Source of the DNA: a virus
Virus record (IMG/VR): IMGVR_UViG_3300009104_000012
Span: 1 to 64,000 of that record
DNA length: 64,000 nt
Strand: one strand, 5' to 3'
Part shown: in pieces, positions 8,641-63,606 of the stretch
Layout of the letters: each line of letters opens with the position of its first letter
How positions within the stretch are numbered: position 1 is the stretch's first letter
The notes under the pieces: generated by a model
Told to the model about the DNA's origin: nothing
The model's input: only the letters and a program-made list of their open reading frames with translations
Database searches by the model: none
Made by a program: the position numbers and the translations under genes

Positions 8641-8873
8641 ATCCAGGTATTATGGTCTTTAGGATGGTGTTTTGTATCTATATCAAAGATTAAACTTATT
8701 ATCAATACCGTCATAGCAATACCTATAATCATCCAAAGACCTCTTCCTTCGTCCCAATTGGTTAATAGATACCACAAAACTTCAACGCCATTCATTCCTT
8801 CTAATGGATTTACTGGTGTTGCGTTTTGTGTTAGTTTATCAAAAAACTCATCAAGTGCTTTTAGTTCCGACAT
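8637..8873 (-). CDS. small membrane protein
   Basis: One TM segment (LWMIIGIAMTVLIISLIF). Confidence 0.6.
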   Translation of the reverse strand: MSELKALDEFFDKLTQNATPVNPLEGMNGVEVLWYLLTNWDEGRGLWMIIGIAMTVLIISLIFDIDTKHHPKDHNTWI

Positions 8874-15016: not shown

Positions 15017-15028
15017 AATCTTTCCTTA

Positions 15029-16882: not shown

Positions 16883-16895
16883 AATCTAAGCGAAC

Positions 16896-16962
16896 CTCCA
16901 GAACAAAAAATTGCTGAGGTAAATCCAGCGCTCAAAATAGCCTGGTTTCTTCCAGTCTGGAG
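16896..16962 (-). promoter_or_regulatory. putative structured RNA leader sequestering the asnB SD
   Basis: Closing stem CTCCAGA/TCTGGAG plus three internal hairpins; GC-rich in an AT-rich background. Confidence 0.5.
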
Positions 16963-17000
16963 AGATCATAATTTTCCATAAGTTTTTTATACGTATATAC

Positions 17001-28094: not shown

Positions 28095-29169
28095 TATTAG
28101 TTAATTGAATAGTTGTATCTTCTGTTTGATTATTTCTGTTATAAGAATAAGTACAAGAATCAGAACCGTCTTGGTCTACTAGTAAAGTAAAGTCATAAAT
28201 TGAATCACCTGATACGGTAAGATTTGCTGTATTACTTCCGTTTAATTGTTTTAATTCAACAACTGCTTCACTTGTATAGATATAAACATATGCTGTATTA
28301 CTTCCACCATTTCCATAATATCTAAACACATTACTATTACCACTAGTTACCGTTTTCATATAATTATTATTACCTCTTTGTACCATTCTAACGTGAGAAC
28401 CTGAAACGTCTGGATGAACATCTAAAATATTTGAGTTGCCTATTACGTCGTGTACTTGGTAGTTGCCTGTACCCCAAGAAGCCATATGTACTTGATTTGA
28501 ATTACCAATTATATAAACATCTATCGTTGCGCCTTCACTTCCTGAAGTATCTGCAAATTGTCCGTGTGAAGCAACCTGTGGACCAATTGCCTTATTGGAG
28601 TTTGTATTCATACCTTCTGATAAAGTAGGGTGTGAATAAAATTCTACATCATTTGAATCACCAGACATAAGAACATATAAGAAATGACCATCACCTCTAC
28701 TATACATCCAAAAATCATTTGAGTCTCCAACTATATCTAAATCAACATTGGTAAGTTTAACATCATCACTTGTAACCGTATCTATTTCTACTATGTTTGA
28801 ACCACCTGTAATATCAATATCATAATAATGTCCTTCAGCACCAACATCATCTAAATCTACTCTTAATATATTAGAATTACCTGTAGCTGTATAATCAAAG
28901 GTCATATCCTCACCCATAAATGATTTATGGTTGCTATCGGTTACTAGATTTGAATTACCTATTTGTTTAATGATAAGAGTTAAGTTGTTACCTCTCATAT
29001 TGAAAGTAGATGAGGTACTTATACCAACTTTATTACCAGAGCCATCTTGCTTGATGTAAATTGATCCGTCTGTGTCTTGATTGTCTTGTTTTATCCAAAC
29101 AGAATTACCTGCCCAACAATTAGTTGTTAGGGTTACCAGAGTCACTAGAATCATTATCAGTTTTTTCAT
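28084..29169 (-). CDS. curlin-like repeat protein (CsgA/CsgB-like)
   Basis: Signal peptide; repeated IxQxGxxN / xGxSN motifs (IKQDGSGN, IKQIGNSN, VQRGNNN); C-terminal Cys pair. Confidence 0.78.
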   Translation of the reverse strand: MKKLIMILVTLVTLTTNCWAGNSVWIKQDNQDTDGSIYIKQDGSGNKVGISTSSTFNMRGNNLTLIIKQIGNSNLVTDSNHKSFMGEDMTFDYTATGNSNILRVDLDDVGAEGHYYDIDITGGSNIVEIDTVTSDDVKLTNVDLDIVGDSNDFWMYSRGDGHFLYVLMSGDSNDVEFYSHPTLSEGMNTNSNKAIGPQVASHGQFADTSGSEGATIDVYIIGNSNQVHMASWGTGNYQVHDVIGNSNILDVHPDVSGSHVRMVQRGNNNYMKTVTSGNSNVFRYYGNGGSNTAYVYIYTSEAVVELKQLNGSNTANLTVSGDSIYDFTLLVDQDGSDSCTYSYNRNNQTEDTTIQLTNSGC

Positions 29170-30160
29170 CTTGCTCCTCCTTTTCGTCTGTATCTATTTG
29201 GTTCCATTCTGCTTCGTTAGCTTCTTCTTTTAATTTCTCGTCTGCTATTTCATTTTCTTGTTTAAGTTTCTTTTCTTCAAGGAATTCTTCATAAGTCTTT
29301 TCTTTTTTAGGTCCTGTATCGTGTATATTAAGTTCAATAGCATTCATTTCTACAACTGGTTTATCTTCAACAGCAATCTCTTCTATTGCCAGTTCTTTAT
29401 ATCTCCACAATCCTTTATCAACACCTTCTTTTATTAATTCTACTACACCTTTTTCAATTGCTTTTCTTACTGCAAAGGTAACTGGTTCATTTCTAGCAAC
29501 ACCAGCTTCTACTTCTAATAACATTGTATCAGCGTCAAAGTATTTAAATATATCTGCACCTCTTGATGTAGAAAATATAGTCTTCTCTATTGTAGTTGTT
29601 ATAACTACTTCACCACTTTGTACATTAACCAATCTTAATATAATAGTAACCACATCTTGTCTGTATTGTGCGTGGTTTTGTATACCTAAAATTCTTGCAC
29701 CAACACCACCTGATTTAATATCAGAATCATACCCAACTATACCACCTGTGATATATGCACCAGCAAATAGTAATGCTGGTAAAGGTTCAGCACCTTCTCC
29801 ATCTACTTGTTGTCTTGTAGACCTAATTAATTTTCTTTCTTGTAAGAGACTTGGTAAACTTGCTCTTTCAACAACTCTAAACCATTTGCCATCGCCTGCG
29901 TCTTGTAATGCCTTAATTAATAATTGATAAGACCCTTGCGTTACCGCTGTACTCATTGAAGCAAAGTCTCCACCTGGTTTCTTTTGACCTGTTAAGTCAA
30001 CGAAATCATAAACAGCAATGACTATTGGGTCGCCTTCTAGTTGCTCAACTTTTTCTAAATCTTTATAAGCAACATCAGCTATTCTTACATCAAAGTCTGG
30101 TTTGCCAGCACAACTAACTAATAATAAAGTTAGTAAAAATATTCCTATGTACTTAAACAT
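29120..30160 (-). CDS. csgG: curli secretion pore CsgG
   Basis: Lipobox LVSC, AVYDFVDLTGQKKP, STAVTQG, WFRVVER..L..LLQERKLIR, NEPV. Confidence 0.93.
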   Translation of the reverse strand: MFKYIGIFLLTLLLVSCAGKPDFDVRIADVAYKDLEKVEQLEGDPIVIAVYDFVDLTGQKKPGGDFASMSTAVTQGSYQLLIKALQDAGDGKWFRVVERASLPSLLQERKLIRSTRQQVDGEGAEPLPALLFAGAYITGGIVGYDSDIKSGGVGARILGIQNHAQYRQDVVTIILRLVNVQSGEVVITTTIEKTIFSTSRGADIFKYFDADTMLLEVEAGVARNEPVTFAVRKAIEKGVVELIKEGVDKGLWRYKELAIEEIAVEDKPVVEMNAIELNIHDTGPKKEKTYEEFLEEKKLKQENEIADEKLKEEANEAEWNQIDTDEKEEQDEKTDNDSSDSGNPNN

Positions 30161-30692: not shown

Positions 30693-32324
30693 ATGATTGC
30701 TATTATTAAAAAAGTAGGCTGGGCTTGGTTAACTATTGCTGTACTTCTATTTTTATATTTAGGAAATCCTACGTTAATGGAGACATCAAGACTTTCCACG
30801 TTTGATTCTTACCAAAAAATAGGTAAGCACTATGATTCCAAAAGCCTAATATTGCTGGATATTTCAGACGCAGCCTTGGAAAAGCAAGGTCAATGGCCTT
30901 GGAAAAGGGACCAATTAGGTCGTGTAGTGGTCAATGCATATAAAAATGGAGCTGCTCTTGTAGTTATGCAAGTAGTCTTCCCACATAAAGATAGATTAGG
31001 TGGTGATGAAATGTTCCTTAAAATGATTACAAAATATCCTGTAATATTAACCGAAACAAATGAAGTTAAAAATCTACAAAGTATTTCCAGAAAATCTTTA
31101 GGTGTAGGTAATGTAGATGTACCTGTAGATATAGACGGTACTATAAGAAAATTACCTGTAAATAATTCCATACCCCAGGTTATATTAAAAGTTATAAACT
31201 TTCCAAAAATAGAACAAGATAATATATGGGTAGATTTTAGATACCATATTCCTAGAATAGATTATACTGATAATGATTGGTCAGGTATGAAAGGTAAAAT
31301 AGTATTCATTGGTACCACATTTAAAGGTTCAACTTTTGTAACCACACCTAATGGATTAAAAAACACTCACGAAATTATGGCAATCAGTACAGAAAATTTA
31401 CTATCAGGAAAATTTATTGATAGACCTGATTGGTTACCTTACGCTGAAGGTGTTTTTATTTTACTTGCTTTATTATTTTTTGTACTAGTTATTCCTAGAT
31501 GTGGTGTAATGTGGTCTTTTCTATGGTATGCTGGATTTATATTTGATATTTTTCTTGGTGCTGGATTTCTATGGTGGAAATACCAATACATAGCTGATTG
31601 GTTTAGTCCTCTATTACTAGGGTCTATACTATGGGCTCACTTAACATATAATAATTATTCAATAGAAAATAAATTAAGACTACAAATTAAAAAACAATTT
31701 GAACATTACTTGGCACCTGCAATGGTACAAAGACTAATGGATAATCCATCACTATTAAAATTAGGTGGTGAAAGAAGAAAATTAACATTTCTATTTTCAG
31801 ACATAAGAGGTTTCACTCCTATATCGGAGAAATTTAAAAATTCTCCTGAAAGACTAACTCGTTATGTTAATAGATTTTTAACTGCAATGACAACCATTAT
31901 ATTACAACACGGTGGTACTATTGATAAGTATATGGGTGATTGTATTATGGCCTTCTGGAACGCACCCCTAGATGTTAAGGAACACAGGAAACTGGCTGTT
32001 CAATGTGCTATAGCAATGAGAAGAAAACTTAAATTAATGAACATAAACAAAGAGTTTATGCCACCTATCAACATTGGTATTGGTATTAATACTGGTGAAT
32101 GTCTTGTTGGAAATATGGGGTCTAAACAAAGATTTGATTATTCAGTTATAGGTGACGCTGTAAATCTAGCAAGTAGATTGGAAGGTGTTAGTAAAAATTA
32201 CAACACCACTATTATAATCGGTGAAGATACTAGGGAGGCTTTAGAAGGTTTTAAATTCTATAAACTTGATGATGTAAAAGTCAAAGGCAAAACTGAAAAG
32301 ATTACCATTTATTCTGTTAGATAA
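30693..32324 (+). CDS. CHASE2-domain class III adenylate cyclase
   Basis: N-terminal TM, GQWPWKR CHASE2 motif, 3 TMs, FSDIRGFT, IDKYMGD, FDYSVIGDAVNLASRLE. Confidence 0.93.
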   Translation: MIAIIKKVGWAWLTIAVLLFLYLGNPTLMETSRLSTFDSYQKIGKHYDSKSLILLDISDAALEKQGQWPWKRDQLGRVVVNAYKNGAALVVMQVVFPHKDRLGGDEMFLKMITKYPVILTETNEVKNLQSISRKSLGVGNVDVPVDIDGTIRKLPVNNSIPQVILKVINFPKIEQDNIWVDFRYHIPRIDYTDNDWSGMKGKIVFIGTTFKGSTFVTTPNGLKNTHEIMAISTENLLSGKFIDRPDWLPYAEGVFILLALLFFVLVIPRCGVMWSFLWYAGFIFDIFLGAGFLWWKYQYIADWFSPLLLGSILWAHLTYNNYSIENKLRLQIKKQFEHYLAPAMVQRLMDNPSLLKLGGERRKLTFLFSDIRGFTPISEKFKNSPERLTRYVNRFLTAMTTIILQHGGTIDKYMGDCIMAFWNAPLDVKEHRKLAVQCAIAMRRKLKLMNINKEFMPPINIGIGINTGECLVGNMGSKQRFDYSVIGDAVNLASRLEGVSKNYNTTIIIGEDTREALEGFKFYKLDDVKVKGKTEKITIYSVR

Positions 32325-51261: not shown

Positions 51262-52656
51262 TTATTTATTATAGATGTAATGTTCCTTCTTGTCTATCAT
51301 TGTTGTATAATAATGTGGTAAACTTCTTATTAAGTTTCTATACTTCCTAAAACCTATAGATTTACCCCAACCCATATAGTCCCTTATTTGACTTATAGTT
51401 ACCTGTTTATTATCTTTTATAAACTTTAATAACTTTTCTCTACTTCTTGACTCACCCATAATATCTTTTTTAATTACAGATAATCCTTCATCTATCATAT
51501 TCTCAAAACCTTTTACTCTATTCTTCCAACTATGGACTTTTCTACAATGTTTAAGTGCTAGTTTTGCCTGTTCATTTCTCCATTTAGTTGAAGTTATTAA
51601 ATGTTCAAAATGTTCTACTGCTTCATCTACGGTATTAAAACCAGTTTCTAAATCTCCAAACAATTCTTTTGTCTCACTACCAATCTGGTAAACATATGGT
51701 ACACCTTGACCTAATCCGTCCTGTGAAGACATTGCCCAACGGTTACCACCGTGGAAACCTGCAACACATTTATGTAATTCATCCAAATATTCTTGTCTAT
51801 CAGCTGGGCCACCAAATTTAATAAAAGATAAATCATCAAAGTATTTTTTTAATTTTGTTTTAGAAGTTGTAGCGTCTGCCATTGTTAACCATAACCTAAA
51901 ATCTGTTCTTTTAGACCTTAACTTTTTAATAATTTGTAAAAACTTTTCCCAACCTCTATAGTTATGCGTTCTATGATTGAACACTATATAAGGTCCTGAT
52001 ATTTCTTCTACATCTTTTCTAATTTTATCATCTTCAAATCCTAGATAAACTGGTCTCATTATACCTCTTAACTTATCAATTGTTTGTTTACTATAATGTT
52101 GTTCTGCTTCTGCAAGTGTATCATCTATTTGTGTTTGTGTATTAAAACCACACGCCTTCATTAATAACATACCACTAATATTGTTATGATAAAAACTTAC
52201 CAACATATTAGGATTGTTTTCTTTGTTCTCTATCCAATGTGAATAACCAATTACAGGAGAGTCCTGACTATATAAGTTTATCATATTATTCATTACATTG
52301 GTTGTTTGTTCTGGTAAATGTGAAAACACCAAATCTATTTCCATAATTCTATTGTCTAATATAGTTTTCCAAAAATAGAAATCATAATGAGACCTCATAG
52401 AATTTGGAAATGTAGGTGTATTAAAAATGTATTGTTTAACATTTGGAAAATCAAACTCTTTACAATGTGATGGCATTGGCATATGAAAGAATAAATCTTT
52501 TCTCTTCTTGTTTAATTCTTTAATGACATTGGACATTACTAGAACATAACTATCTTTTGATAGTTCTCTTTGTTTAGTAATATTAGGTACAACTAATATT
52601 TGGTAAATATTTTCTTTGCCTAATGGTTGTTTGTTAAAGAATTTATCTAATGTCAT
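51262..52656 (-). CDS. GT-B glycosyltransferase, putative DNA-modifying
   Basis: IVFNHR...YRGW, WAMSSQDGL..GVP; lies at the position T4 uses for beta-glucosyltransferase. Confidence 0.65.
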   Translation of the reverse strand: MTLDKFFNKQPLGKENIYQILVVPNITKQRELSKDSYVLVMSNVIKELNKKRKDLFFHMPMPSHCKEFDFPNVKQYIFNTPTFPNSMRSHYDFYFWKTILDNRIMEIDLVFSHLPEQTTNVMNNMINLYSQDSPVIGYSHWIENKENNPNMLVSFYHNNISGMLLMKACGFNTQTQIDDTLAEAEQHYSKQTIDKLRGIMRPVYLGFEDDKIRKDVEEISGPYIVFNHRTHNYRGWEKFLQIIKKLRSKRTDFRLWLTMADATTSKTKLKKYFDDLSFIKFGGPADRQEYLDELHKCVAGFHGGNRWAMSSQDGLGQGVPYVYQIGSETKELFGDLETGFNTVDEAVEHFEHLITSTKWRNEQAKLALKHCRKVHSWKNRVKGFENMIDEGLSVIKKDIMGESRSREKLLKFIKDNKQVTISQIRDYMGWGKSIGFRKYRNLIRSLPHYYTTMIDKKEHYIYNK

Positions 52657-53485
52657 TAGCTAATCTCCTTGCACCATAAGTTATCATAAAATCTGCACCA
52701 GCTCTTTTAAATACTTCGTATGTTTCTCTTAAACTACCAGGCGCACCAATACCTAACCACTCACCCGATACTTGATAAGCACCACAAGGTTTGCCTGTTG
52801 CTTTCTTTATGCCATAAATTAAATCTATACTTGTCATACCTGGTTTCACCATTAATTCATCTGCACCATCTTGAGCATATTTTATAGACCTTTTAATTGC
52901 ACCTGCTTTATCTGATACATCTAATTGATATGGTCTTTCAATCCCTTTCGGTATCGCCATAGTCTCACGCCAACCTCTATAAAAAGTAGAACGGAATTTT
53001 GTACTATAACTCATCACAGGTATATTACCATCTTTTATTGATTTAATATTCTTAACCGTATTATCTTGACAATCACTTGGTGCTATTGTAGCACCTGAAG
53101 CTGTGTAAATATCTTTTGCTTGTTGTAATAATAATTTATCTGTACGCTCTTGGTCTCCTATAATGCAACAATGTCCGTCCTGTGTATAAGAACATAAACA
53201 AATATCTACATTTAATTTAATAGGTAAAGTTGAAAGACTAGCTGCTACTACACATACTTGGTCAAATTTATGGTCATCAATTCCTTCTCCAGGTCTCCAA
53301 CTATCTGATTTTTCTCCTAGTTTAAATTCTGGAACATAGAATAATAAAAACTCTTTAACACCTAGGTCTATATCTTTCTTAACTCTTTCGTTAATTTCTT
53401 TCCAAGCATTAAAAATTTTATTATCTTCACCTAATCCAGTATCTTTTGTTCTAGGTCCAGCAAATATTGGTTGTATTAATCTCAT
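52643..53485 (-). CDS. hemB: porphobilinogen synthase (ALA dehydratase), Zn-type, compact
   Basis: DICLCSYTQDGHC, APSD, MSYSTKF and MVKPG catalytic Lys, AYQVSGE, RAGAD..ITY. Confidence 0.88.
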   Translation of the reverse strand: MRLIQPIFAGPRTKDTGLGEDNKIFNAWKEINERVKKDIDLGVKEFLLFYVPEFKLGEKSDSWRPGEGIDDHKFDQVCVVAASLSTLPIKLNVDICLCSYTQDGHCCIIGDQERTDKLLLQQAKDIYTASGATIAPSDCQDNTVKNIKSIKDGNIPVMSYSTKFRSTFYRGWRETMAIPKGIERPYQLDVSDKAGAIKRSIKYAQDGADELMVKPGMTSIDLIYGIKKATGKPCGAYQVSGEWLGIGAPGSLRETYEVFKRAGADFMITYGARRLANDIR

Positions 53486-54591
53486 CTTATTATATCAATC
53501 TTGTCCATAGTCTGATTGTTCCATACTTCGTTTTCAGTTCTTAATTTATTATCTGTTTTTAATTTGTCATATCTTTTTGTTGCTTTATTCTTCCACCATT
53601 TTACAATATTTTCTAATTCAAATTTATCATAGTTTTCACCTTTAATTAACTTATCGGTCTTACCTAATAATATATCTTTGACATTTGAGAAACCATAATC
53701 TGACATATAAAATCTTTTTTGTGTTGTAATACCTTCTGCCTTTGCCATAGATTTAACAAAGGTATCATAATCACCACTACCTTTTAATGCTCTCTTAACC
53801 ATACCAATCATTGCTGTGGTAATTTTTAACTTTCTACTAGAGGCACCTTTATGTACAATATCATCACCTATAATATCTTCAATATAACTTTTTAAATTAA
53901 AATAAGTTTCTTCACCTAAAGTTGGTACAAATTTTGACATTGTATCTCCTTTATATCTTAAATATGGTTTCAGTCCATCATACATAGATGTACCTTTTAT
54001 ATTACCATATAAACTTGTAGTTTCAAACAAACAAAATTCTGTATCATATTTCTTATTTAGCATTTCTCTTACTTTATGAGAACAACAAATCAATGCCAAT
54101 AGTTTACCACCAAGATAATTAAAACCAAATGGTTGTACTGGTACTATATTGAAACCCATTATGGCCCTTTTATTAAAGATAGGTAAATCTGGAGTACCAC
54201 CCAAATAATTATTTCTTGGTTTAGAATTGATAATAGGCGAACCTAATTTAATAAATCCTATAATAGTATTTGAAGTATTATCTTTAACAACTAATTTTAA
54301 TTCTTTACCTGGCGCCTGGTCTGGAGAGAAACTAGCAATCATTTCCAACATTGTATTAAAAGTGGAGTGTTGCATTTCAACCACTTGTATATCCATATCT
54401 TCAGGTTTAATATTATAATCATTAAACATATCATCTTCCAATCCAAAACCTGGTAGTGATGGTGGAATATTCTTAACTCTTTCAATCTTTCTCAATCTAA
54501 AATAGTCATCTATACGATTCAAACTATCAAAATAATCTCTAAAGATTTTAGAGCAATGTAATGCTTGTTCAACGTTTAGGGTCTTCATCAT
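53482..54591 (-). CDS. DUF4338 / Mom-like GNAT-fold protein
   Basis: PGKELK...GFIKLGSP, IVPVQPFGFNYLGGKLLAL, ETTSLYG. Confidence 0.7.
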   Translation of the reverse strand: MMKTLNVEQALHCSKIFRDYFDSLNRIDDYFRLRKIERVKNIPPSLPGFGLEDDMFNDYNIKPEDMDIQVVEMQHSTFNTMLEMIASFSPDQAPGKELKLVVKDNTSNTIIGFIKLGSPIINSKPRNNYLGGTPDLPIFNKRAIMGFNIVPVQPFGFNYLGGKLLALICCSHKVREMLNKKYDTEFCLFETTSLYGNIKGTSMYDGLKPYLRYKGDTMSKFVPTLGEETYFNLKSYIEDIIGDDIVHKGASSRKLKITTAMIGMVKRALKGSGDYDTFVKSMAKAEGITTQKRFYMSDYGFSNVKDILLGKTDKLIKGENYDKFELENIVKWWKNKATKRYDKLKTDNKLRTENEVWNNQTMDKIDIIR

Positions 54592-54675
54592 TCCACTTCT
54601 TTAATAACCATATCGGTAATATATAAACTAATACCATAAATAATATAAAAATTAATCCTACTCCTATCATTTCCA

Positions 54676-55218
54676 TCATAATTCATTCCCCCAATTATCC
54701 CAACCATCTACTTGTTGTCGGGCAAATAGTTCTATTCTTGGCAGATCACCTGCCAACTCTATAATTCTTGACCTAACCTCATCTGGTTTTCTACTATGTT
54801 CTCTTCGTTCAGCAACCACTAATCTATCTACATTGGTACCAACTCTATGTGGTTTTCCTTTTGTTGCCAAGATACATATTTCAGGATTGGCTCTTGTCCA
54901 TAATCCTGTACCTTTAAAATAATAATTCTTAATTCTATTCTTGTTAGTTTTTATCCAATAAAATCCTACCGTCTTATATTTAAAACCCCATTTCTCAACA
55001 ATTGGTATTTGTTTATGTAATAATGGGTCTGTACACCACATAAACAATATACAATCTTTATCTGCAATATCTCCAACTGGTAAATCTTCAATCTCTTTCA
55101 TTGTCATTGTTGGATAATGGTGTATAGGATTTGTTTGTGCCTTATCATTATTCCAATTCTGAAAATGCCAAGGAGGATCGGCATAAATTATATTATATTT
55201 TTTCTTACTTAATTCCAA
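54676..55218 (-). CDS. MT-A70 family N6-adenine DNA methyltransferase
   Basis: IYADPPW, HYPTM, LFMW, WGFKYKT, HSRKP, IELFAR, WGNE. Confidence 0.92.
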   Translation of the reverse strand: MELSKKKYNIIYADPPWHFQNWNNDKAQTNPIHHYPTMTMKEIEDLPVGDIADKDCILFMWCTDPLLHKQIPIVEKWGFKYKTVGFYWIKTNKNRIKNYYFKGTGLWTRANPEICILATKGKPHRVGTNVDRLVVAERREHSRKPDEVRSRIIELAGDLPRIELFARQQVDGWDNWGNEL

Positions 55219-57683
55219 AAGTCCTCCAAACTCGCCACTCGTTCATACTTCCAACCAATAGAGTTTAATATAAATCTCAATGGGTCTAAAAATGTTTTTT
55301 CAAATTGAGTTGTATAATCTATATACTCTTGCAACTTAAATTCTCTAGGTAATTTTGTAAGATAACTAATAACACCATACTTAAATGGATTAGGTTCTTT
55401 TAATAATATAAACTTAATCTTATCTCCTTCTTGTATCAATGGATATTTAGCAGTAAGTTTAAGTTGTTTTAAATAATGATTGTATATTAAAGACCCTTTA
55501 ACGTGTATTGGACAACTCTTCTGAAATATATTACTAGCGTCTGAATATTTTTTAAGATTATTACAAGACCTTGGAAAAGCAATCGCTTCTGGTGGTAGTC
55601 CTTCAAATTCATTTTTAAACTTATCAACAAAATTAATTAAATCTGGTTCTTCCTTCTTCATAATAATATCAATTGCTTCTTTAATTCTTTTTCTACAAAT
55701 TGCTGGTGTTGAAGATTTAACTGCCTCAATTCCCATAATTTTCATTTTAGGTTCAGCATATCTAACGCCTTCACTATCATATACATTTAACATATATCTT
55801 TTCTTTGATACCCATATACCTTTATCAGCAATAACTTCTCTTGCCATTTCCATTTTTTGGTCAAAAGCATTTGTATATTCTGCAAGTTCTTTATAACACT
55901 TATCAATATATGGTTCAAATTGTTTTTCACACGCCTTGTTTAAAAATTCAACTACTTGGTCTTTTGATTTATTACCACATATTTTTTCTACTAACTTATC
56001 TAAACACACATAAATTGAATCTGTATCAGACGCAACTATATAATCGTGGTCATCTGTTTTTAATAAATGATTTAAATAATCGTTCATCTTATTCTCAATA
56101 AATTTAATAACATACTGACCTCCAGTAGTTATCGCTGTCGCTTGTCTTACATCATAGTATCTGAAAAATTGGTTACCAATAGCACCATAGGCACTATTCA
56201 ATGCAATCTTTCTTGACCATTGTATATTATGGAATCTACTTACCTTTTTTAATAAAGACTTCTCTTTTGTTTTTTCATATTCTTGTCTTGCTTTAATTTC
56301 TTTTTGTTTAAATTTAACTCGTTCTTTATACATTGTCTCCATCATATTAGCAAGAAAACCTTGACTATCGGTTTTAAACAACGCACCATTTGGAGTTATA
56401 CACGCACCTTCTTTTTTAAGATAACTTAAATCTGATTTTTTATTTAATAAATTACTTACAGAAACTCCATTACCTTTCATACCAATAATTTTTTCAGGTG
56501 AAATATTATATTGCATAATTAAATGTGGATACAAACTATTTAAATCAAATGACACTACCCACTTATGCATACCAACCTGTGGATCTTTTACATATGCACC
56601 AATATATTTTGTATCTTTACTATGTTCTTCTCTAGGTGGTACAGCAATCTTATTTTTTAATAAGTGATTATAAATTAAAGTATCCCAAGTTCTAACTTGA
56701 CTAAACACATCTGAATAATTTACTTTAGCGTCATACGCCATAGTTAAGACTAGTTCAATTAAACCAAGTTTATCTTCTAGTCTATCCACTATTTCAACAT
56801 CTTGAATATTATAATCTATAAAAGATTGTAAATCTTTAGTGTACCATTCTTTAAATGTATCATAAGGGTTATCATCTTTCTTTTCGCCTAGTTCTACTTG
56901 ACCAATCCAATCCAATCTATAACTCTCTTGTCTTGTTGGAATATATTTTGTATATAAATCCAAATAATCTAACATTGCAATACCAACCACATTGTATACC
57001 GTTTGTGGTCTACCTCTTACTTCAACCGTTTCTTGTTCAACTATATTCCAAGGTGATAATTTTCTTATTACTTTTTCATCTGTTAATAATTTAATTCTAT
57101 TGCATAGATATGGTAAATCAAAAAACTTTGTATTCCAACCTGTAATAACATCTGGATAATTTTTCATCCAGAATTTCATAAACTCCATTATTAAAACTTT
57201 TTCATTACTACATTTAATATAGGTTACATCTTTTCTATCTGTTTTAAAATCACCAATACCCCAAGTTATAATCTGTTTGTTAGAGGCATTTTTAACCGTA
57301 ATACATATTAACTCTTCTATAGGATTTTGTACATCTGGAAATCCATCTTCACAGGTTGTTTCTATATCTAATGTAAAAATGGAAATAAATTCTTTAGACC
57401 ATTCAATTGTTTCTGGATATTCAGCTGAAATATATTGATATTGAAATCTATCTAAACCAAATAATGGAGCACCACTATATGATTTTTTAAATTCTCTTGC
57501 TCTTGAAATACTATTAAAGTTTACAGGTTTTAAATTTTGACCTTGTAAAGTTTTCCAATCTCCATTACCTAATACATAAAGAGTTGGATTAAAATCTATC
57601 TTCTCTTGGAAAGACTTGTTTCTTTCAATACCACGGACTAGTAATTTACCTCTATGTTCAATAACTGATTTATAAAAATTCAC
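55209..57683 (-). CDS. 43: family B DNA polymerase gp43
   Basis: DIET exonuclease motif, FDLNSLYP, KIALNSAYG, ASDTDS, KKRY. Confidence 0.97.
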   Translation of the reverse strand: MNFYKSVIEHRGKLLVRGIERNKSFQEKIDFNPTLYVLGNGDWKTLQGQNLKPVNFNSISRAREFKKSYSGAPLFGLDRFQYQYISAEYPETIEWSKEFISIFTLDIETTCEDGFPDVQNPIEELICITVKNASNKQIITWGIGDFKTDRKDVTYIKCSNEKVLIMEFMKFWMKNYPDVITGWNTKFFDLPYLCNRIKLLTDEKVIRKLSPWNIVEQETVEVRGRPQTVYNVVGIAMLDYLDLYTKYIPTRQESYRLDWIGQVELGEKKDDNPYDTFKEWYTKDLQSFIDYNIQDVEIVDRLEDKLGLIELVLTMAYDAKVNYSDVFSQVRTWDTLIYNHLLKNKIAVPPREEHSKDTKYIGAYVKDPQVGMHKWVVSFDLNSLYPHLIMQYNISPEKIIGMKGNGVSVSNLLNKKSDLSYLKKEGACITPNGALFKTDSQGFLANMMETMYKERVKFKQKEIKARQEYEKTKEKSLLKKVSRFHNIQWSRKIALNSAYGAIGNQFFRYYDVRQATAITTGGQYVIKFIENKMNDYLNHLLKTDDHDYIVASDTDSIYVCLDKLVEKICGNKSKDQVVEFLNKACEKQFEPYIDKCYKELAEYTNAFDQKMEMAREVIADKGIWVSKKRYMLNVYDSEGVRYAEPKMKIMGIEAVKSSTPAICRKRIKEAIDIIMKKEEPDLINFVDKFKNEFEGLPPEAIAFPRSCNNLKKYSDASNIFQKSCPIHVKGSLIYNHYLKQLKLTAKYPLIQEGDKIKFILLKEPNPFKYGVISYLTKLPREFKLQEYIDYTTQFEKTFLDPLRFILNSIGWKYERVASLEDFWN

Positions 57684-58485
57684 TTAAATTGCCTTCCGCT
57701 TTATACTTTGATATGTTCTTCCTATTATACACCATTTCTTTCGATAAGTCAAATGGCATTTTCTTTGTTTCTTTGTACGAAGAAGTTCCACTCATCCACG
57801 ACTTCACCCACCAAATCAAATCGGTATGTTTTGGGTATTTTAAGTTCCAAGTAACCGTTGACTTTTTTAAATTTTTTCGGTCTTTCGGTGTCATTGGATA
57901 GATATATCTAAATTGTTTACCCTTCACTCGGTTCAATTTTAATTCTTTAAGTTGTTTTGGGTTTGGTCTATGACCGTATTTTAAACCTTCTTTATTTGGT
58001 AATTGTCCTTGTAAAGTTCTAGGGTGTACTTTCTCTCCTGTTTCGGTAACATAAGTATCTGTTATAGAAAATCCACCATATAAAAAATTAGCTGCCTGAT
58101 ATACATAGCCAGGTTTGCCCACAATACCATCTGCCCAAGTATAAAGATATTTAACATCTGTATTTTGTTTTAACCATTTAATTGATAGTGATAGTAATTG
58201 AGATTCAGAATTTCTAGGCATAGAATCATCCATACACATCTTGCCTATTTCTAGGTAATCTTTTGTATCTAATTTTGGAAATAATTTTTGTATAGTATGT
58301 TTTGGTCTTGTACCCCAACCAAAGGTAATAACTCCAACTAATGTATCATATGAATCTACTGGAAACTTTTTGTTTCTTACAAAGCAACCTAGATAATGCT
58401 TAGTGAGTCTCGGCATAACAGCCGAGTAATGGCGTTTAGCAACGAATTCAGCTGCTGTTATTTTGTGTAAAGGTTTTATTATCAT
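57670..58485 (-). CDS. Mom-like DNA adenine-modification protein
   Basis: RHYS, GVITFG, LEIGKMC...PRNSES, TWADG...GYVYQAANFLYGG. Confidence 0.75.
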   Translation of the reverse strand: MIIKPLHKITAAEFVAKRHYSAVMPRLTKHYLGCFVRNKKFPVDSYDTLVGVITFGWGTRPKHTIQKLFPKLDTKDYLEIGKMCMDDSMPRNSESQLLSLSIKWLKQNTDVKYLYTWADGIVGKPGYVYQAANFLYGGFSITDTYVTETGEKVHPRTLQGQLPNKEGLKYGHRPNPKQLKELKLNRVKGKQFRYIYPMTPKDRKNLKKSTVTWNLKYPKHTDLIWWVKSWMSGTSSYKETKKMPFDLSKEMVYNRKNISKYKAEGNLSEFL

Positions 58486-58805
58486 TATATATCATCTTTG
58501 TCTCTCAATTCTACTATCAATTTGTCGTGTTCTTTGCCTAACATTATTTGGCAACCTAATCTACTTCTTTTAGGGTCATAACCCTTTTCATATTCCAAGA
58601 GTTCTTGTTCTAAACTATTTTCAACAATTGGTAAATTATCCACATACACGTGGCAGGTAGCACAGGCGCAATTACCCCCACAATCGGCAGGTATTTCGGG
58701 AATTGGAACACTACTAAACTTTGTAGCAGCTTCCATAATTGAAAATCCTGGTGGTACTTCAACTCTTATCTTTGAACCGTCTCTTACAAAATATATTTCT
58801 ATCAT
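58485..58805 (-). CDS. fdx: 2Fe-2S ferredoxin (adrenodoxin/ISC type)
   Basis: CGGNCACATCHV...SRLGCQ. Confidence 0.92.
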   Translation of the reverse strand: MIEIYFVRDGSKIRVEVPPGFSIMEAATKFSSVPIPEIPADCGGNCACATCHVYVDNLPIVENSLEQELLEYEKGYDPKRSRLGCQIMLGKEHDKLIVELRDKDDI

Positions 58806-58808
58806 TCA

Positions 58809-59138
58809 TCACTTATCTATTTTAGGTAATTCTGTTTCAGTAATCAATTCTGGTTTTCTTGGTTGTATAATTCCTGTACCTAAATGATAATTGTATGAGT
58901 TTTTTATATCTGTTTTTGGTGATACCTCTGCTATAATATGTTCTCTTTTAATTTTAATAACATCTTCTGTAGCATAAGGTAAATAGGGAGTTAACATTAA
59001 TTGTACAGGTTTTCCTGGTGCTGATTGTGTTGGTATAATCACAAACGCTTTTTTAATTTCTGTTATCTCTCCTGATTGATTTTGTATTTGGCCTATTACA
59101 TCTTCGCCAGTAGATAATCTTAATATTTTTATTTCCAT
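58809..59138 (-). CDS. conserved T4-like hypothetical protein (possible Sm-like fold)
   Basis: IKILRLSTGEDVIG...PYLPY. Confidence 0.7.
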   Translation of the reverse strand: MEIKILRLSTGEDVIGQIQNQSGEITEIKKAFVIIPTQSAPGKPVQLMLTPYLPYATEDVIKIKREHIIAEVSPKTDIKNSYNYHLGTGIIQPRKPELITETELPKIDK

Positions 59139-59147
59139 AATCTCCTC

Positions 59148-59176
59148 ATTATATCATTACTTTAATCTAATGTCAA
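59148..59176 (-). promoter_or_regulatory. sigma70-type promoter upstream of the fdx-mom-43 block
   Basis: TTGACA-N17-TATAAT. Confidence 0.8.
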
Positions 59177-60570
59177 TCCTCGTCCTTCAAACTATACTTT
59201 GTTGTTATTATATACTTACGGTTAGGATTAACCATTACATTAAATCTATTCATTGTTTCTCTATCAAATAATATTTTAGATTTTTCTTCTCTATCATCTA
59301 AAGTAAATTCAACATCTTTATATAATCCACCTGCAAATTCTACATCAAGTTCGATTACATATCTATCTTCTTTATAATCTCTTAAACCACCTACATTAAT
59401 TGTTTCTTTTCTTATTATATCGTTTGTAATTGATTTGCCTTCTAGTGTCCAAGTAATTTTCTTACCACTAACTTTCATTTTCTCAGCGTGTATAACGGAG
59501 TTACCTGAATTACCTGTATCAAATTTTCCAACAATTCGTCCAAATGGGTGTATATGTACCACTTCTTTATACCCACACTCAGCAGGTACTCTTTTCCAAT
59601 TTTCTCTATCTTCAAAGTGTTGTACTATTTCTTTACTTAAATTTCTTCCTGTTGCCTCTTCAATACCTTGCGTACCAGCAGAAGAGTTAACTTCAATAAT
59701 ATATGGTGGTTCTTTTTCTCTATTCTTAGCAGGTATAAAATCTACTGCAACAAATAATCCATCTACTGCTTTTGCAGCCTTTAAACTTTCTTCAACTTCC
59801 ACTTCCGTTAATTCTAATTTTGAAACTCCTGCACCTTGAGATACATTACTTCTAAAATCTCCTGGTATAACTTCTCTTTTCATTGAAGCTAATACTTGAC
59901 CATTTAATACCAAAACTCTAGCGTCCCAATCCGTTTTAACATATTGTTGTAATAAAATATCAGAGTCTTCATCTTGTTTATTAAGTAATTGTACAATCGA
60001 ATCTAATGCTCTTTCTGATTCAATAAACAATACACCAACACCTTTTGAACCTCTTAATGTTTTTAAAATAACAGGAAACTTTTCCTCTAATTGTTCAAAT
60101 GCTTCCATTGAATTTTCTGGATCGGTAACCAATACTGATTTAGGTTGTTTAATACCATAATCAGATAATCTTAAAGAAGTTCTATATTTGTCAGCACATA
60201 TACTTATAGCCTGTCTGCTATTAACAACACAAACCATATGCTTTTCTAATCTTGAAACCAAGTCCATCCAACTATCTCTACGAACAACTGAACCTCGTAC
60301 AATTGCTACCGTATCTTTAGATGAAACTCTAAAACCTTTTTTATCTTCTTTGTTATGGAAATATAACTCTTCATCTTCTTCTTTGGTTACATAACCACCA
60401 GTATTTCTAAAGATGTATGCTTTATGTCCTAACTTAAGCGCCTCTTTCATAAGGTTTTTTGCCGTATGAAAATTTAAATCATCTTCAGGTTCATCTGAAA
60501 TAATGATTAATCTAAAAGGTTTTCTTACTTTAGCTTCTGTTATGTATTCTTTGAATTTTGGTACTTGCAT
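59173..60570 (-). CDS. rimK: RimK-like ATP-grasp ligase fused to a retropepsin-like protease
   Basis: ADKY, PVILKTLRGSKGVGV, DARVLV, FRSNVSQG, IEVNSSAG; C-terminal KFDTGN. Confidence 0.85.
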   Translation of the reverse strand: MQVPKFKEYITEAKVRKPFRLIIISDEPEDDLNFHTAKNLMKEALKLGHKAYIFRNTGGYVTKEEDEELYFHNKEDKKGFRVSSKDTVAIVRGSVVRRDSWMDLVSRLEKHMVCVVNSRQAISICADKYRTSLRLSDYGIKQPKSVLVTDPENSMEAFEQLEEKFPVILKTLRGSKGVGVLFIESERALDSIVQLLNKQDEDSDILLQQYVKTDWDARVLVLNGQVLASMKREVIPGDFRSNVSQGAGVSKLELTEVEVEESLKAAKAVDGLFVAVDFIPAKNREKEPPYIIEVNSSAGTQGIEEATGRNLSKEIVQHFEDRENWKRVPAECGYKEVVHIHPFGRIVGKFDTGNSGNSVIHAEKMKVSGKKITWTLEGKSITNDIIRKETINVGGLRDYKEDRYVIELDVEFAGGLYKDVEFTLDDREEKSKILFDRETMNRFNVMVNPNRKYIITTKYSLKDED

Positions 60571-61010
60571 TACTCATCTTCTTTTTTAACTTCCTCGGTG
60601 ACATTTTTCTTACCGATATTATATTTAGTTGCTAATGTCCACTCTTTTTTTTCTTTAAATGGTAAAACTTTAATTTGACTTAACGGTGCTTTATTCTCCG
60701 CCTTTGTCTTATCATTAATTTCAATCAAACTCCAGTCCTGTAATAGAACAGCAATGGTATTTCTACGCTGTATATCGTTTTCTGTTAGTGTTGATTTTTT
60801 ACCGTCTAAAGCAAATAGTTCTTTGAAATGCGTAATGTAATATTTACCTTGCTTGTGTAATATATGGCAAGATTGAAATAACGTTTTGTCTTTTCTGGAA
60901 GCGACACCGATTCGTGTCAAGGTTTCTCTAACTTTTAAAAAATCGTCAGGTTGTTTTATTGATACTTCCAGCATATCACTAACCGACCACTTTATAATCT
61001 CTTCATTCAT
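60570..61010 (-). CDS. regA: translational repressor RegA
   Basis: DDFLKVRETLTRIGVAS...QSCHILHKQGKYYITHFKELF. Confidence 0.97.
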   Translation of the reverse strand: MNEEIIKWSVSDMLEVSIKQPDDFLKVRETLTRIGVASRKDKTLFQSCHILHKQGKYYITHFKELFALDGKKSTLTENDIQRRNTIAVLLQDWSLIEINDKTKAENKAPLSQIKVLPFKEKKEWTLATKYNIGKKNVTEEVKKEDE

Positions 61011-61402
61011 TTTCTTTTTCTCCCACCTTTTTCAAGGTTCAATTTAATATTTTCAAGTTGGTCATTTGTTAGTATGCTTAAAGCCTCTTTTGCTTTTGAA
61101 TTACTATAATCATAATACTCTTTTACTAATTCAAGGTCTTTGACTTTCTTTTGTGTAAGCCATCTACCACCAAATCGCCTTCTCTCTCTTATACTATTTA
61201 TAAAATAGTCAAATTGCATTTTCTTTGGGAGAAAATGGTAACCGTTCATTTCATTGGAATGCATTATGGTATCATAAAAAGAAGATAGACACCTGTTAAT
61301 AATAAATGATGGATATTTCTTTTCCCAAGTAAGGTCATCTGAATCCATTAACCGTTTCTTGGTTATATTAATTGCATTTAAATAATCTTTTAGTTCGTAC
61401 AT
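61007..61402 (-). CDS. 62: clamp loader small subunit gp62
   Basis: YLNAIN, FIINRCLS, NEMN, VKEYYDYS..KA. Confidence 0.92.
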   Translation of the reverse strand: MYELKDYLNAINITKKRLMDSDDLTWEKKYPSFIINRCLSSFYDTIMHSNEMNGYHFLPKKMQFDYFINSIRERRRFGGRWLTQKKVKDLELVKEYYDYSNSKAKEALSILTNDQLENIKLNLEKGGRKRK

Positions 61403-61968
61403 ATCTTCTTAATAAAAATTAACTTCTTATTCTCACCTGTTGGTTTAACATACAAAGATTTCAACTCTTCTTTACTATGCCATTTCATAGATACTGCTTT
61501 ATGTTTAGGTAGACCTGCAGTTTCGCCAATCATTTTCCAATTATCTGCCTTATAGACAGCACCATTATTACCACCTGCAACAAAGGTAATTAGGTATTTT
61601 AATTCATTCCCATACTTTTCCCGCCAATATGGAATCGCTTGTCTCCTTAATTCTTTTAATACTCTGGTTCCAACATTTTTAATCTTTTTCCTCATACAGA
61701 ACCTCCAATTATTCGCAAAACTATTGAAGTTTTCCTTATATGTTTTGATATCCATACCAACATATTTAAGAATATCCTTTGGTGGTGGATAGACGGAGGA
61801 ACCAATTCCTATCATACCAACTGGTTTATCTTGATAAAACACAACCCAATCCACTCTCCGACCAACGGAGGCTGTTGTTGGTACGTAACTATGATACTTT
61901 GATATAGTCTCTTTAATGTACTCTTTGGATTGATTGTCATTTGCTATTCTTAGCTCGATTGTTTCCAT
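61390..61968 (-). CDS. Mom/DUF4338-like GNAT-fold protein
   Basis: YHSYV...GRRV...GMIG, NNWRF, ITFV...GAVYKADNW..IGETAG. Confidence 0.7.
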   Translation of the reverse strand: METIELRIANDNQSKEYIKETISKYHSYVPTTASVGRRVDWVVFYQDKPVGMIGIGSSVYPPPKDILKYVGMDIKTYKENFNSFANNWRFCMRKKIKNVGTRVLKELRRQAIPYWREKYGNELKYLITFVAGGNNGAVYKADNWKMIGETAGLPKHKAVSMKWHSKEELKSLYVKPTGENKKLIFIKKICTN

Positions 61969-62564
61969 TCTTTATTATGTCCACTTACTCCAAAATGCAT
62001 TGTATTAAAACTAATTACATACCTTTCATCTGTAGTATTTGTTTTTGTGCCGTGTTCTAACCAACTTGGAAATAGATATAAATGTCCTTCTTTTGCTGGT
62101 AGTATTGCTTCCATAGCATTGTATCCTGTAACCTCACTATAGAGTTCACACATCTTATAAGGTTGCAAAGGATTTTTAAAAGTTAAACCTACTGAACCTT
62201 CAGGACATTTTGGATAATAAGCACCACTAATAAGACTTGCTTGGTGTCTATGCATTTTTAAACTTGTATCTTTTTCCATAATACTAAACCAACTATTAAT
62301 CATTTCAAATTCTCTTAACCCTAATAACTTTCCGTATTCTTTTAAACGCTGTTCAAATTCTCTCCTCAATTCGGCGAATTCTGGTTTATCTAATATACTA
62401 TCATATGGATTATATGTACTCTTACCACCACCTTCTAATAAAGGGTGATCTTTCATTGATGGTTTATATGCTTCTAATTTCTCCGTAATATGGTCATTAG
62501 GTGAGCATAAAATCCTAAATTCCATTACTGCTAATGGAAATATATTATGTATTTCTATTGTCAT
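61950..62564 (-). CDS. 2OG-Fe(II) oxygenase (TIGR02466-like)
   Basis: NSW, HRH...ISGAYY, FPSWLEH, RYVISFN. Confidence 0.85.
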   Translation of the reverse strand: MTIEIHNIFPLAVMEFRILCSPNDHITEKLEAYKPSMKDHPLLEGGGKSTYNPYDSILDKPEFAELRREFEQRLKEYGKLLGLREFEMINSWFSIMEKDTSLKMHRHQASLISGAYYPKCPEGSVGLTFKNPLQPYKMCELYSEVTGYNAMEAILPAKEGHLYLFPSWLEHGTKTNTTDERYVISFNTMHFGVSGHNKEWKQSS

Positions 62565-62661: not shown

Positions 62662-63606
62662 TCATTTGAATTTACAATTTGCCATTATTTCAGTTAGACA
62701 AGCAACCATATTAATTTCTTGGTCTGCAACAAAAGCTGCCTTGTATTGGTAACCTGCAATAATTAAAACTGCCTGTGGTATTGATTTTGGTTCCAGATAC
62801 TTATAAAGAACATCATATAATCCTGTAAATAATGTTGATGGATCTTTATCTAAATTCTGAACAACCCATTTACGCATATCATTAAATTTTTTATCTTTAA
62901 GCATAGCAATTAATTCTTTATTGTTTGCTTCAGATAAACTGAATAATATACCACTATCTATCTTACCTCTAACAGAATACCGTTGAAGTTCATTAATAGT
63001 TCTTCTAAAATCTGGATAAAATTTTTGTACTAGTTCAGCAAGTACCTTCTTATCATAACCAATCTTCTCTTCTTCTAATAGTTTAATTAATCGAAGCATA
63101 AACGCTGTAGCCGTTTTGACTTTTTGACCATTAGCGATCTTAAAATCAATCACGGTACATCTACTATGGAGTGCTGGTATGATTTTGTTTTTGTAATTGC
63201 AAGTAAATATAAATCTACAATTATTATAAAATGTTTCTATAAAATTTCTTAAAGCAGGCTGAACACTATCAGCATTCATATAATCTGCTTCATCTACAAT
63301 TACAACTTTATGATTAGAGTCTTCCGTTAGGGATACGGTTGACGCAAAATTCTTAATCTTATTTCTTAAAGTATCTATGTGTCTACCTTCATCTGAACCA
63401 TTAATAATAATGTAATCAGCGCCTAGTTCTTCACATAAAGCACGAGCTACGGTAGTCTTACCTGTACCTGCTGTACCTGATAATAAAAGATTTGGGATTT
63501 CTTTTTGTTTTAGAAAATTTAAAAAAGTTTCTTTTAAATCTGCTGTGAGAATACAATCACGTATTGCTCTTGGTCGGTATTTTTCAACCCATAAGTAATC
63601 GGACAT
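62662..63606 (-). CDS. 44: clamp loader large subunit gp44
   Basis: LWVEKYRP, GTAGTGKT, VDEAD, ALHSRC, PDFRR. Confidence 0.96.
   Translation of the reverse strand: MSDYLWVEKYRPRAIRDCILTADLKETFLNFLKQKEIPNLLLSGTAGTGKTTVARALCEELGADYIIINGSDEGRHIDTLRNKIKNFASTVSLTEDSNHKVVIVDEADYMNADSVQPALRNFIETFYNNCRFIFTCNYKNKIIPALHSRCTVIDFKIANGQKVKTATAFMLRLIKLLEEEKIGYDKKVLAELVQKFYPDFRRTINELQRYSVRGKIDSGILFSLSEANNKELIAMLKDKKFNDMRKWVVQNLDKDPSTLFTGLYDVLYKYLEPKSIPQAVLIIAGYQYKAAFVADQEINMVACLTEIMANCKFK

Follow-up and report, generated by a model that had tools for sequence, protein, structure and literature searches.

Mom-family and DUF4338 acyltransferase genes in the replication module of a pelagimyophage-like virus: candidate cassettes for parallel modification of phage DNA

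To our knowledge, Mom of phage Mu was until 2026 the sole enzyme known to aminoacylate DNA, and it has been studied in a single temperate coliphage. The enzyme moves glycine from Gly-tRNA(Gly) onto N6 of adenine in double-stranded DNA, a transfer followed by an on-base rearrangement, and the product is N6-carbamoylmethyl-adenine (PMC13219725, Silva et al. 2026). Residues H58, Y59, R111, S124, D149, R151 and Y159 are important in Mu Mom, as is a helical insertion, and marine homologues of the protein have been mined earlier, with the GOV2.0 ocean viromes among the sources (PMC13219725). The DUF4338 domain, found in DruA of type I Druantia, has been classified as a GNAT domain by the Aravind group (PMC10853773), and a homologue from cyanophage S-SCSM2R of the longer DUF4338 protein described below already bears the annotation 'methylcarbamoylase mom' (PMC12801897); both the cyanophage DUF4338 annotations and the mining of marine Mom homologues are prior knowledge. 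On the T4 map, genes 44 and 62 are adjacent and beta-gt, a glucosyltransferase gene, is located between gp43 and uvsX. The stretch analysed here, referred to throughout as the window, comprises positions 1 to 64,000 of IMG/VR virus record IMGVR_UViG_3300009104_000012, and the element in question is its T4-like replication module at 51262-62564, in which a Mom-family gene, two DUF4338-type genes, an MT-A70 methyltransferase gene and a glycosyltransferase gene are interleaved with the replication genes.

The module is best explained as that of a T4-like phage of the pelagimyophage group in which the slots between genes have gathered several independent mobile cassettes, most of which would serve, in parallel, to modify the newly replicated DNA of the phage itself. 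The probability of such parallel post-replicative modification is put at roughly 50% overall, higher for Mom and lower for the DUF4338-glycosyltransferase pair. What is secure are the identities and folds of the gene products, their conserved residues, the conservation of the gene pair and the separate occurrence of the parts; DNA as substrate, the donors, clamp binding and the products are predictions. Under this explanation, MT-A70 would make N6-methyladenine, and Mom, translationally coupled to DNA polymerase, would ride the gp45 clamp via a polymerase-like tail and aminoacylate N6 of adenine with a charged tRNA as donor, the part that Gly-tRNA(Gly) plays for Mu Mom. The long DUF4338 protein would install the first group on a base, to which the glycosyltransferase, an optional add-on, would attach a sugar, and the short DUF4338 protein would be a further Mom-like paralogue, to which no target is assigned. 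HemB, the ferredoxin, the RimK-protease protein and the 2-oxoglutarate (2OG) oxygenase would be the products of unrelated auxiliary genes lodged in the same slots. The genes on which the explanation turns are the following, with fold matches taken from AlphaFold2 (AF2) models.

51262..52656, minus strand: GT-B (GT4-like) glycosyltransferase, 464 amino acids (AF2 fold match; Pfam below cut-off)
53482..54591, minus strand: long DUF4338/DruA-type GNAT, 369 amino acids (PF14236 E 1.4e-11; phrog_19197 E 4e-139)
54676..55218, minus strand: MT-A70 family N6-adenine methyltransferase, 180 amino acids (PF05063 E 2e-31; phrog_359)
55209..57683, minus strand: gp43 family-B DNA polymerase (PF00136, PF03104)
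57670..58485, minus strand: Mom-family GNAT, 271 amino acids (PF25680 E 9.5e-52; 8bv8 E 2.7e-16)
61390..61968, minus strand: short DUF4338/Mom-like GNAT, 192 amino acids (phrog_1384 'Mom-like' E 9e-6)

A sequence-only reading of the same DNA had named three Mom/DUF4338-like GNAT proteins, an MT-A70 methylase and a GT-B enzyme at the T4 beta-gt position. All are present: the one at 57670 is a true Mom and the other two (53482, 369 amino acids; 61390, 192 amino acids) are of the DUF4338/DruA type, the methylase carries a DPPW motif in addition to its Pfam match, and the GT-B enzyme has a GT4 fold match and occupies the gp43/uvsX interval that holds beta-gt in T4.

The 271-residue protein belongs to the Mom family, scoring 176 bits against PF25680 (cut-off 27.1), and aligns with the solved Mu Mom structure 8bv8 at ~30% identity. 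It keeps the Mu residues H58, Y59, E108, N121, E123, S124, D149 and Y159, and the helical (HTH-like, that is, helix-turn-helix-like) insertion is also present, with the Mu 175-209 region aligned and H183, T186, G194, R196 and K211 conserved. The marine Mom clade numbers 1818 relatives and has a conserved C-terminal extension of ~50 amino acids with an L-[SDNE]-x-F-[LF] end, which in the window protein reads NLSEFL. The tails of gp43 polymerases are similar, being SLEDFWN in the window phage and SLDFLFG in T4, and the C-terminal tail of T4 gp43 binds the gp45 clamp. By analogy with the polymerase, the window Mom is probably tethered to the sliding clamp, and such tethering would favour DNA as its substrate.

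The position of Mom within the module was compared across ~300 IMG/VR loci fetched by DUF4338, 192-residue protein, HemB, glycosyltransferase and tRNA-like queries, in which the window proteins were placed by tblastn. Among these loci, an arrangement with Mom between Fer2 and gp43 is confined to the window and to L003, the locus most closely related to it. Mom of the marine type also occurs in a cultured phage, the Methylophilales phage Melnitz (55% identity). In a T4-like marine contig (L007), positions 8176-9506 hold a Mom gene (PF25680 E 6e-49) that overlaps a short DUF4338 gene; the two occupy the slot held in the window's record by a DUF4338 gene of 444 codons. Mom and DUF4338 genes thereby interchange in the same slots.

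The 369-residue protein is a DUF4338 family member by its score of 44.5 bits against PF14236 (cut-off 27), a match that covers the GNAT core only. All Foldseek matches listed for its AF2 model (pLDDT, the model's own confidence score, 77.5) are GNAT-type acyltransferases. In VIA-align comparisons Mu Mom 8bv8 comes out on top, with Z 9.7 and a root-mean-square deviation of 4.0 over 178 aligned residues; for other GNATs Z is 8.6 or less, over ~145 residues, FemA among them with Z 8.4. The long DUF4338 gene is always found within T4-like replication modules, in various slots, with MT-A70 (23 loci), gp41 (16) or gp44 (15) upstream, and several Synechococcus phages encode it, among them S-SSM7, S-SM2 and S-CAM9. 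The C-terminus of the protein (encoded at 53482-53500) is IDIIR in 16 of 17 aligned members and IQIIR in the remaining one, and could be a docking peptide.

Downstream of the long DUF4338 gene in the window, and separated from it by HemB, lies the gene for the 464-residue glycosyltransferase. This protein scores 19.2 bits against Pfam Glyco_trans_1_2, below the 25-bit cut-off, and an hmmsearch of its family against PDB sequences gave no match, yet Foldseek places its AF2 model (pLDDT 76.5) with MshA, BshA and PimA (E ~1e-12, TM 0.6-0.75), identifying a GT-B fold; its Atlas neighbours are GT1/GT4 enzymes. T4 beta-gt is not among the fold matches listed, and what the two enzymes have in common is the genomic slot. 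The 344 glycosyltransferase homologues extend to ~32% identity. Sufficient upstream DNA is available for 63 of them, and 51 of these have a DUF4338 gene directly upstream, usually abutting; in the reverse direction, a glycosyltransferase follows in only 15 of 57 DUF4338 loci. The imbalance is in keeping with a primary enzyme whose second-step partner is optional. The pair recurs in at least four slots, including gp43/uvsX and gp44/gp62, and the long DUF4338 and GT4 glycosyltransferase genes are thus a conserved two-gene unit that moves between slots, a linkage that the sequence-only reading had not singled out.

The glycosyltransferase carries an extra, conserved C-terminal domain of ~90 amino acids (51265-51543) with GWGRG and YRR motifs. 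Its modelled helix-strand-helix-helix-strand-strand order resembles a winged helix; searches of Pfam and the Atlas returned no family match for the domain, one homologue showing a sub-threshold TP6A_N hit. Elsewhere in the window, positions 12759-17879 encode a GDP-mannose 4,6-dehydratase, a DegT/DnrJ aminotransferase, an asparagine synthase and a radical SAM/SPASM protein, a sugar-nucleotide/amide cluster that might supply an unusual sugar donor.

The 192-residue protein has no Pfam match of its own at E <= 0.01. Its family comprises 1130 metagenomic relatives, including some at 60-82% identity, most of which do match PF14236, and its homologue in contig L007 scores 30.8 bits against that profile. 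By hhalign it aligns with Mom at 84.6% probability across the GNAT core, with equivalents of R111, S/T124 and Y159 kept and D149 replaced by Ala; the profile-profile comparison of its family with the long DUF4338 family is not significant. A fourth gene of this kind, DUF4338/DruA with 444 codons (PF14236 E 8.5e-18), lies beyond the window at L128:6581-7915 (minus strand; record 70080-71414), and its counterpart in Pelagibacter phage Mosig EXVC030M is annotated as a DUF4338 protein. Genes for a peptide deformylase, ribosomal protein S21, a small heat-shock protein, a peroxiredoxin-type Redoxin and two further 2OG oxygenases lie nearby. As to a type I Druantia system, in which DruA occurs with DruB-DruE, the neighbours of the DUF4338 genes are instead T4-like replication genes, MT-A70, HemB and the glycosyltransferase gene.

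The MT-A70 protein scores 109.7 bits over the entire family profile (positions 1-172 of 172), with DPPW at residues 14-17, and is a member of that family. Because both it and Mom act on adenine N6, the two would work in parallel rather than in series.

That the cluster consists of separable cassettes and not of one operon-encoded pathway follows from the independent occurrence of its parts in relatives. The 73,883-bp IMG/VR record that contains the window is pelagimyophage-like, with an estimated completeness of ~40%; the G+C content of the window is ~31%, nearly all of its genes are on the minus strand, and within 51262-62564 every gene is. The closest isolate is Mosig EXVC030M (Kyanoviridae), at 74.6% nucleotide identity across 36% of the region. 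Nearly the whole stretch is found again in marine plankton metagenomes, in 20 runs that come from two or more studies, and the gp43|Mom|Fer2, RimK..2OG and HemB|DUF4338 junctions are bridged at 99% identity or more by short contigs from four of these runs, likewise from at least two studies. Since contigs of independent runs span the junctions, the gene arrangement is real and no assembly artefact. In the order of transcription it runs gp45, gp44, 2OG oxygenase, 192-codon open reading frame (ORF), gp62, RegA, RimK, 109-codon ORF, Fer2 and Mom, and continues with gp43, MT-A70, DruA/DUF4338, HemB, 464-codon ORF, 113-codon ORF, UvsX, 107-codon ORF and gp41. The remaining annotated members are as follows.

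52643..53485, minus strand: compact HemB (porphobilinogen synthase/ALAD), 280 amino acids (PF00490 E 9e-47)
58485..58805, minus strand: 2Fe-2S ferredoxin, Fer2 (PF00111 E 3.9e-9)
58809..59138, minus strand: 109-residue protein, function unassigned (phrog_527 E 1.3e-15)
59173..60570, minus strand: RimK-type ATP-grasp ligase with a PF05618 protease-like domain (PF08443 E 2.9e-37; PF05618 E 4e-6)
60570-61010, minus strand: RegA translational repressor (PF01818 E 2e-45)
61007-61402, minus strand: clamp-loader subunit gp62 (PF16790 E 4e-11)
61950..62564, minus strand: 2OG-Fe(II) oxygenase, 2OG-FeII_Oxy_5 (PF13759 E 3.4e-18; phrog_81 E 8e-39)
62662-63606, minus strand: clamp loader gp44 (AAA and Gp44_lid domains)
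63618 onward (to 63980), minus strand: sliding clamp gp45, C-terminal part (gp45-slide_C)

Overlaps of 1-19 nt chain the genes into three groups, namely glycosyltransferase/HemB/DUF4338, MT-A70/gp43/Mom/Fer2 and RimK/regA/gp62/192-codon gene/2OG oxygenase, and the 192-codon and 2OG oxygenase genes part gp44 from gp62. The sequence-only reading had remarked on the overlaps around gp43, on two genes splitting the normally adjacent gp44-gp62 pair, and on a 2OG-Fe oxygenase and a ferredoxin, all of which the coordinates and profile matches bear out. Its observation that the window has no dCMP hydroxymethylase extends to the whole 73.9-kb record (~40% complete), in which no thymidylate-synthase/dCMP-hydroxymethylase domain was found. 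Two genes inside the range, those for HemB and the RimK-protease protein, were absent from its list.

Most of these additional genes keep their places whether or not Mom is present. The ferredoxin gene is a conserved pelagimyophage gene next to gp43 and stands in the same place in Mosig and numerous further loci where Mom is absent, including 11 of the DUF4338 loci. The positions of Fer2, the 109-codon ORF, RimK and MT-A70 are all kept in Mosig and in many Mom-less loci, the RimK-protease gene being conserved beside regA and the 109-codon ORF (phrog_527) between RimK and Fer2. Homologues of this ORF (26-31% identity) also precede the long DUF4338 gene in gp44/gp62 slots of the cyanophage type. 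The 2OG enzyme is of the generic marine-phage PF13759/phrog_81 type, not of the TET/JBP type, and in Mosig its gene occupies the gp44/gp62 slot without the 192-codon gene. A role for Fer2 as redox partner of Mom was considered and rejected, the adjacency being unconserved and the current Mom mechanism having no redox step.

HemB has a different history. Aligned with E. coli HemB (1b4e), the window protein has both Schiff-base lysines (K195 and K247 equivalents) and the zinc site Cys-x-Cys-x7-Cys with its triad of cysteine ligands; the N-terminal arm used in octamer assembly is absent, the protein having 280 residues and the match beginning at profile position 53 of 317. The compact HemB is an auxiliary metabolic gene. 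Of the ~39 viral loci in its family, the other 38 lie in a baseplate-proximal island (gp5..gp25/gp6) beside 2OG oxygenases and DUF454. Because HemB is missing in the closest relatives (L009-L011), where the DUF4338 gene abuts the glycosyltransferase gene, and elsewhere belongs to that other island, it is in the window a recent insertion into the DUF4338-glycosyltransferase pair, and the idea that it forms part of the two-gene unit was rejected on the same grounds. Pelagimyophages are known to carry alaS, hemO and pcyX (PMC11480375), and a phage HemB would add to the viral Shemin-pathway genes (alaS) known from them; the potential partners alaS, hemO and bilin-reductase genes were not found in the 74-kb fragment, which represents a record ~40% complete. 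As a separate observation, the window has a single long plus-strand gene (30693-32324), whose product joins a CHASE2 sensor to an adenylate/guanylate cyclase domain; the GC skew breaks locally at this gene, which adjoins a CsgG-like gene (29120-30160).

Beyond the window, 877 nt past its end, lies a tRNA-Gly(ACC)-like element of 74 nt (L128:1378-1451, minus strand; record 64877-64950). ARAGORN and Rfam gave no detection on this stretch. Its minimum-energy fold is a cloverleaf (z -2.56) with G1-C72, C2-G71, G3-C70, U73, C35 and C36, an ACC anticodon and an encoded CCA, and the canonical elbow is lacking: the D-loop GG is absent, the T-loop reads GGCAGTA and there is no TPsiC. In 27 viral loci, and also in Mosig, the element lies immediately upstream of gp45, and its nine sequence variants show compensatory changes in three anticodon-stem pairs and one acceptor pair; cloverleaf, covariation, glycine identity elements and CCA together mark it as a tRNA-Gly. 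Contig L007 carries at positions 178-249 a tRNA-Gly(ACC) that ARAGORN does call, homologous to the element in the acceptor and D arm, and so holds Mom, a short DUF4338 gene and tRNA-Gly(ACC) together. As Mu Mom, the founding member of these enzymes, takes its glycine from Gly-tRNA(Gly), a tRNA-Gly close by hints at a link to Mom.

Several points weigh against post-replicative modification of the phage's DNA by these enzymes. We know of no DUF4338 protein with a known substrate. The profile-profile comparison between the long DUF4338 family and Mom is not significant, so their relationship is at the fold level only, where it rests on one AF2 model whose Z score against Mom lies about one unit above that of generic GNATs. 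The tail motif, which among the 157 ORFs of the record is found within the last nine residues of gp43 and Mom only, was defined after both sequences had been seen. In alignment with Mu Mom, the window protein has K at R111 and I at R151; in the Mu enzyme R111K sharply lowered activity and R151A abolished it (PMC13219725). Of 82 diverse Mom-family representatives retrieved in a full-library search, 50 have R and 29 have K at position 111, and 50 have I, M or L at position 151, where only 9 have R; the K111/I151 pattern is common in the family, and the Mu residues at these positions are therefore not family-defining. The tRNA-like gene, for its part, is present in most pelagimyophage loci that have no Mom, and 65% of the glycine codons in the phage are GGT, the codon it matches. 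Finally, the SAR11 hosts rarely have restriction-modification systems, and pelagimyophage glycosyltransferases have been interpreted as modifiers of the host surface (PMC7029224).

The last two points are also the natural starting place for the alternative that survives best, which is unlikely but of real weight: the DUF4338 proteins and the glycosyltransferase would act off DNA, on host or phage proteins, charged tRNAs or envelope sugars, leaving MT-A70 and perhaps Mom as the enzymes that act on DNA. GNATs that act on tRNA or protein, such as FemA, are structural neighbours of the DUF4338 model, and GNAT toxins such as TacT act on charged tRNAs. By our reading of the alignment, the long DUF4338 family also has a Q-x-x-G-like segment after strand 4, like acyl-CoA-using GNATs, and pelagimyophages are rich in sugar genes of the lipopolysaccharide (LPS) type, of which the window's GDP-mannose dehydratase and DegT aminotransferase are examples. 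Against these considerations, every slot in which the DUF4338-glycosyltransferase pair was seen, the T4 beta-gt slot included, belongs to the replication module, and the pair is not part of the hypervariable LPS/tail-fibre island. The DUF4338 model finds its top match in Mom, which modifies DNA, and no other GNAT aligns with it over as many residues; the exchange of Mom and DUF4338 genes for each other in the same slots also speaks against a role away from DNA.

A more elaborate version of the DNA-modification explanation is doubtful. In abundant T4-like phages of the ocean, both pelagimyophages and cyanomyophages, it would combine an undescribed two-step base hypermodification by the DUF4338 protein and the GT4 enzyme, with an amino-acyl or acyl group added by the former and the sugar following, and a clamp-tethered Mom fed by the phage tRNA-Gly(ACC) as a dedicated donor, kept off the ribosome by its rewired elbow. 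Given the lineage-wide presence of the tRNA-like gene without Mom and the dominance of GGT, a translational role suffices for it.

Somewhat less probable again is a simple pile-up of accessory genes in the known insertion hot spots among T4-like core replication genes, the slots then holding unrelated morons and the Mom-like paralogues perhaps being inactive or decaying. The content of the slots does differ between close relatives, and HemB, a recent insertion, splits a conserved pair. All four GNAT families, however, have many members (1130, 1818 and >330 relatives) and are conserved, a good number of their residues being invariant; the reading frames are intact and recur at 99% identity or more in independent marine runs; and the DUF4338-glycosyltransferase linkage persists to ~32% glycosyltransferase identity.

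A single serial pathway, in which methylase, oxygenase, ferredoxin, three GNATs and glycosyltransferase work on one base to yield a new hypermodified nucleotide, draws on the tight packing and frequent overlap of the genes and on the fact that all of the enzymes could in principle act on nucleic acid, and is very improbable, since its parts are independent in relatives, Fer2 and 2OG positions are kept in phages without Mom or the 192-codon gene, the 2OG enzyme is a PF13759 protein and not TET/JBP, genes overlap as a rule across the compact module, those of the core as well, the same N6 atom would be contested by MT-A70 and Mom, and the current Mom mechanism uses neither iron nor a redox partner. 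The sequence-only reading had proposed multi-step hypermodification and had described Mom as binding iron and acetyl-CoA; the latter description is superseded by the use of Gly-tRNA(Gly) by Mu Mom (PMC13219725), and of the former, the unusual number of candidate DNA-modifying enzymes finds support and the one multi-step pathway with oxygenase and ferredoxin does not.

Parallel modification of phage DNA by separable cassettes is therefore the explanation retained here, and it is directly testable. Subsets of the genes are found in cultured phages, Melnitz carrying Mom, and Mosig and HTVC008M carrying DUF4338 genes only. The Mom superfamily is represented here by four paralogues in one lytic phage of SAR11, the sea's most abundant bacterium; one of them is probably tied into the replisome, and another has a glycosyltransferase as its partner in marine viral contigs that number in the hundreds. 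If it is true, a large share of ocean viral DNA bears unknown bases, with consequences for sequencing, restriction-based methods and phage-defence biology, and new DNA-tagging enzymes come into view; the DUF4338 result would then offer, for the first time, a functional approach to DruA from the Druantia defence system. In the searchable literature no report was found of a conserved DUF4338-GT4 pair, of a gp43-like tail on the marine Mom clade, of slot interchange between Mom and DUF4338 genes or of four paralogues in one genome, and nothing was found that treats DruA together with GNAT, or Mom-like proteins together with glycosyltransferases.

Of the known systems, phage Mu Mom offers the closest comparison. 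The window protein shares with it the PF25680 family, the GNAT core with its helical insertion and the conserved residues, and the long DUF4338 model superposes best on it. The differences are considerable: ~30% identity, K111 and I151, and an extension of ~50 C-terminal amino acids with a gp43-like tail, in a lytic T4-like phage where the gene is coupled to that of the polymerase and lacks control of the Com/Dam type. The genome also adds three DUF4338 paralogues, and donor and product are here predictions only.

The hydroxymethylcytosine glucosylation system of T4 (gene 42 with alpha- and beta-glucosyltransferase) is similar in having a GT-B enzyme between gp43 and uvsX, and the window's glycosyltransferase likewise lies beside a putative primary-modification gene, in keeping with a proposed scheme of modifying first and then adding a sugar, in which the sugar step is optional. 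Unlike T4, the window's record has no dCMP hydroxymethylase; the partner of the glycosyltransferase is a Mom-like GNAT, so that the first step would be a post-replicative acylation or aminoacylation and not the formation of a modified dNTP pool. The enzyme also differs from T4 beta-gt in resembling the retaining GT4 enzymes MshA, BshA and PimA and in its extra C-terminal domain. With DruA of type I Druantia, the 369- and 444-residue proteins and relatives of the 192-residue protein have PF14236 in common; unlike DruA, they are phage-encoded, their genes stand alone or beside a glycosyltransferase gene, and DruB-E are missing from the neighbourhood.

Mosig EXVC030M, HTVC008M, Melnitz and the marine cyanomyophages (Kyanoviridae) share the replication backbone of the window, with Fer2, RimK, MT-A70 and DUF4338. 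Mosig differs in having neither Mom nor the 192-codon gene in the corresponding slots, and the Mom matches listed do not name HTVC008M. What sets the window's lineage apart from all of these relatives is the joining of Mom, the short DUF4338 gene, the glycosyltransferase gene and HemB in one replication module.

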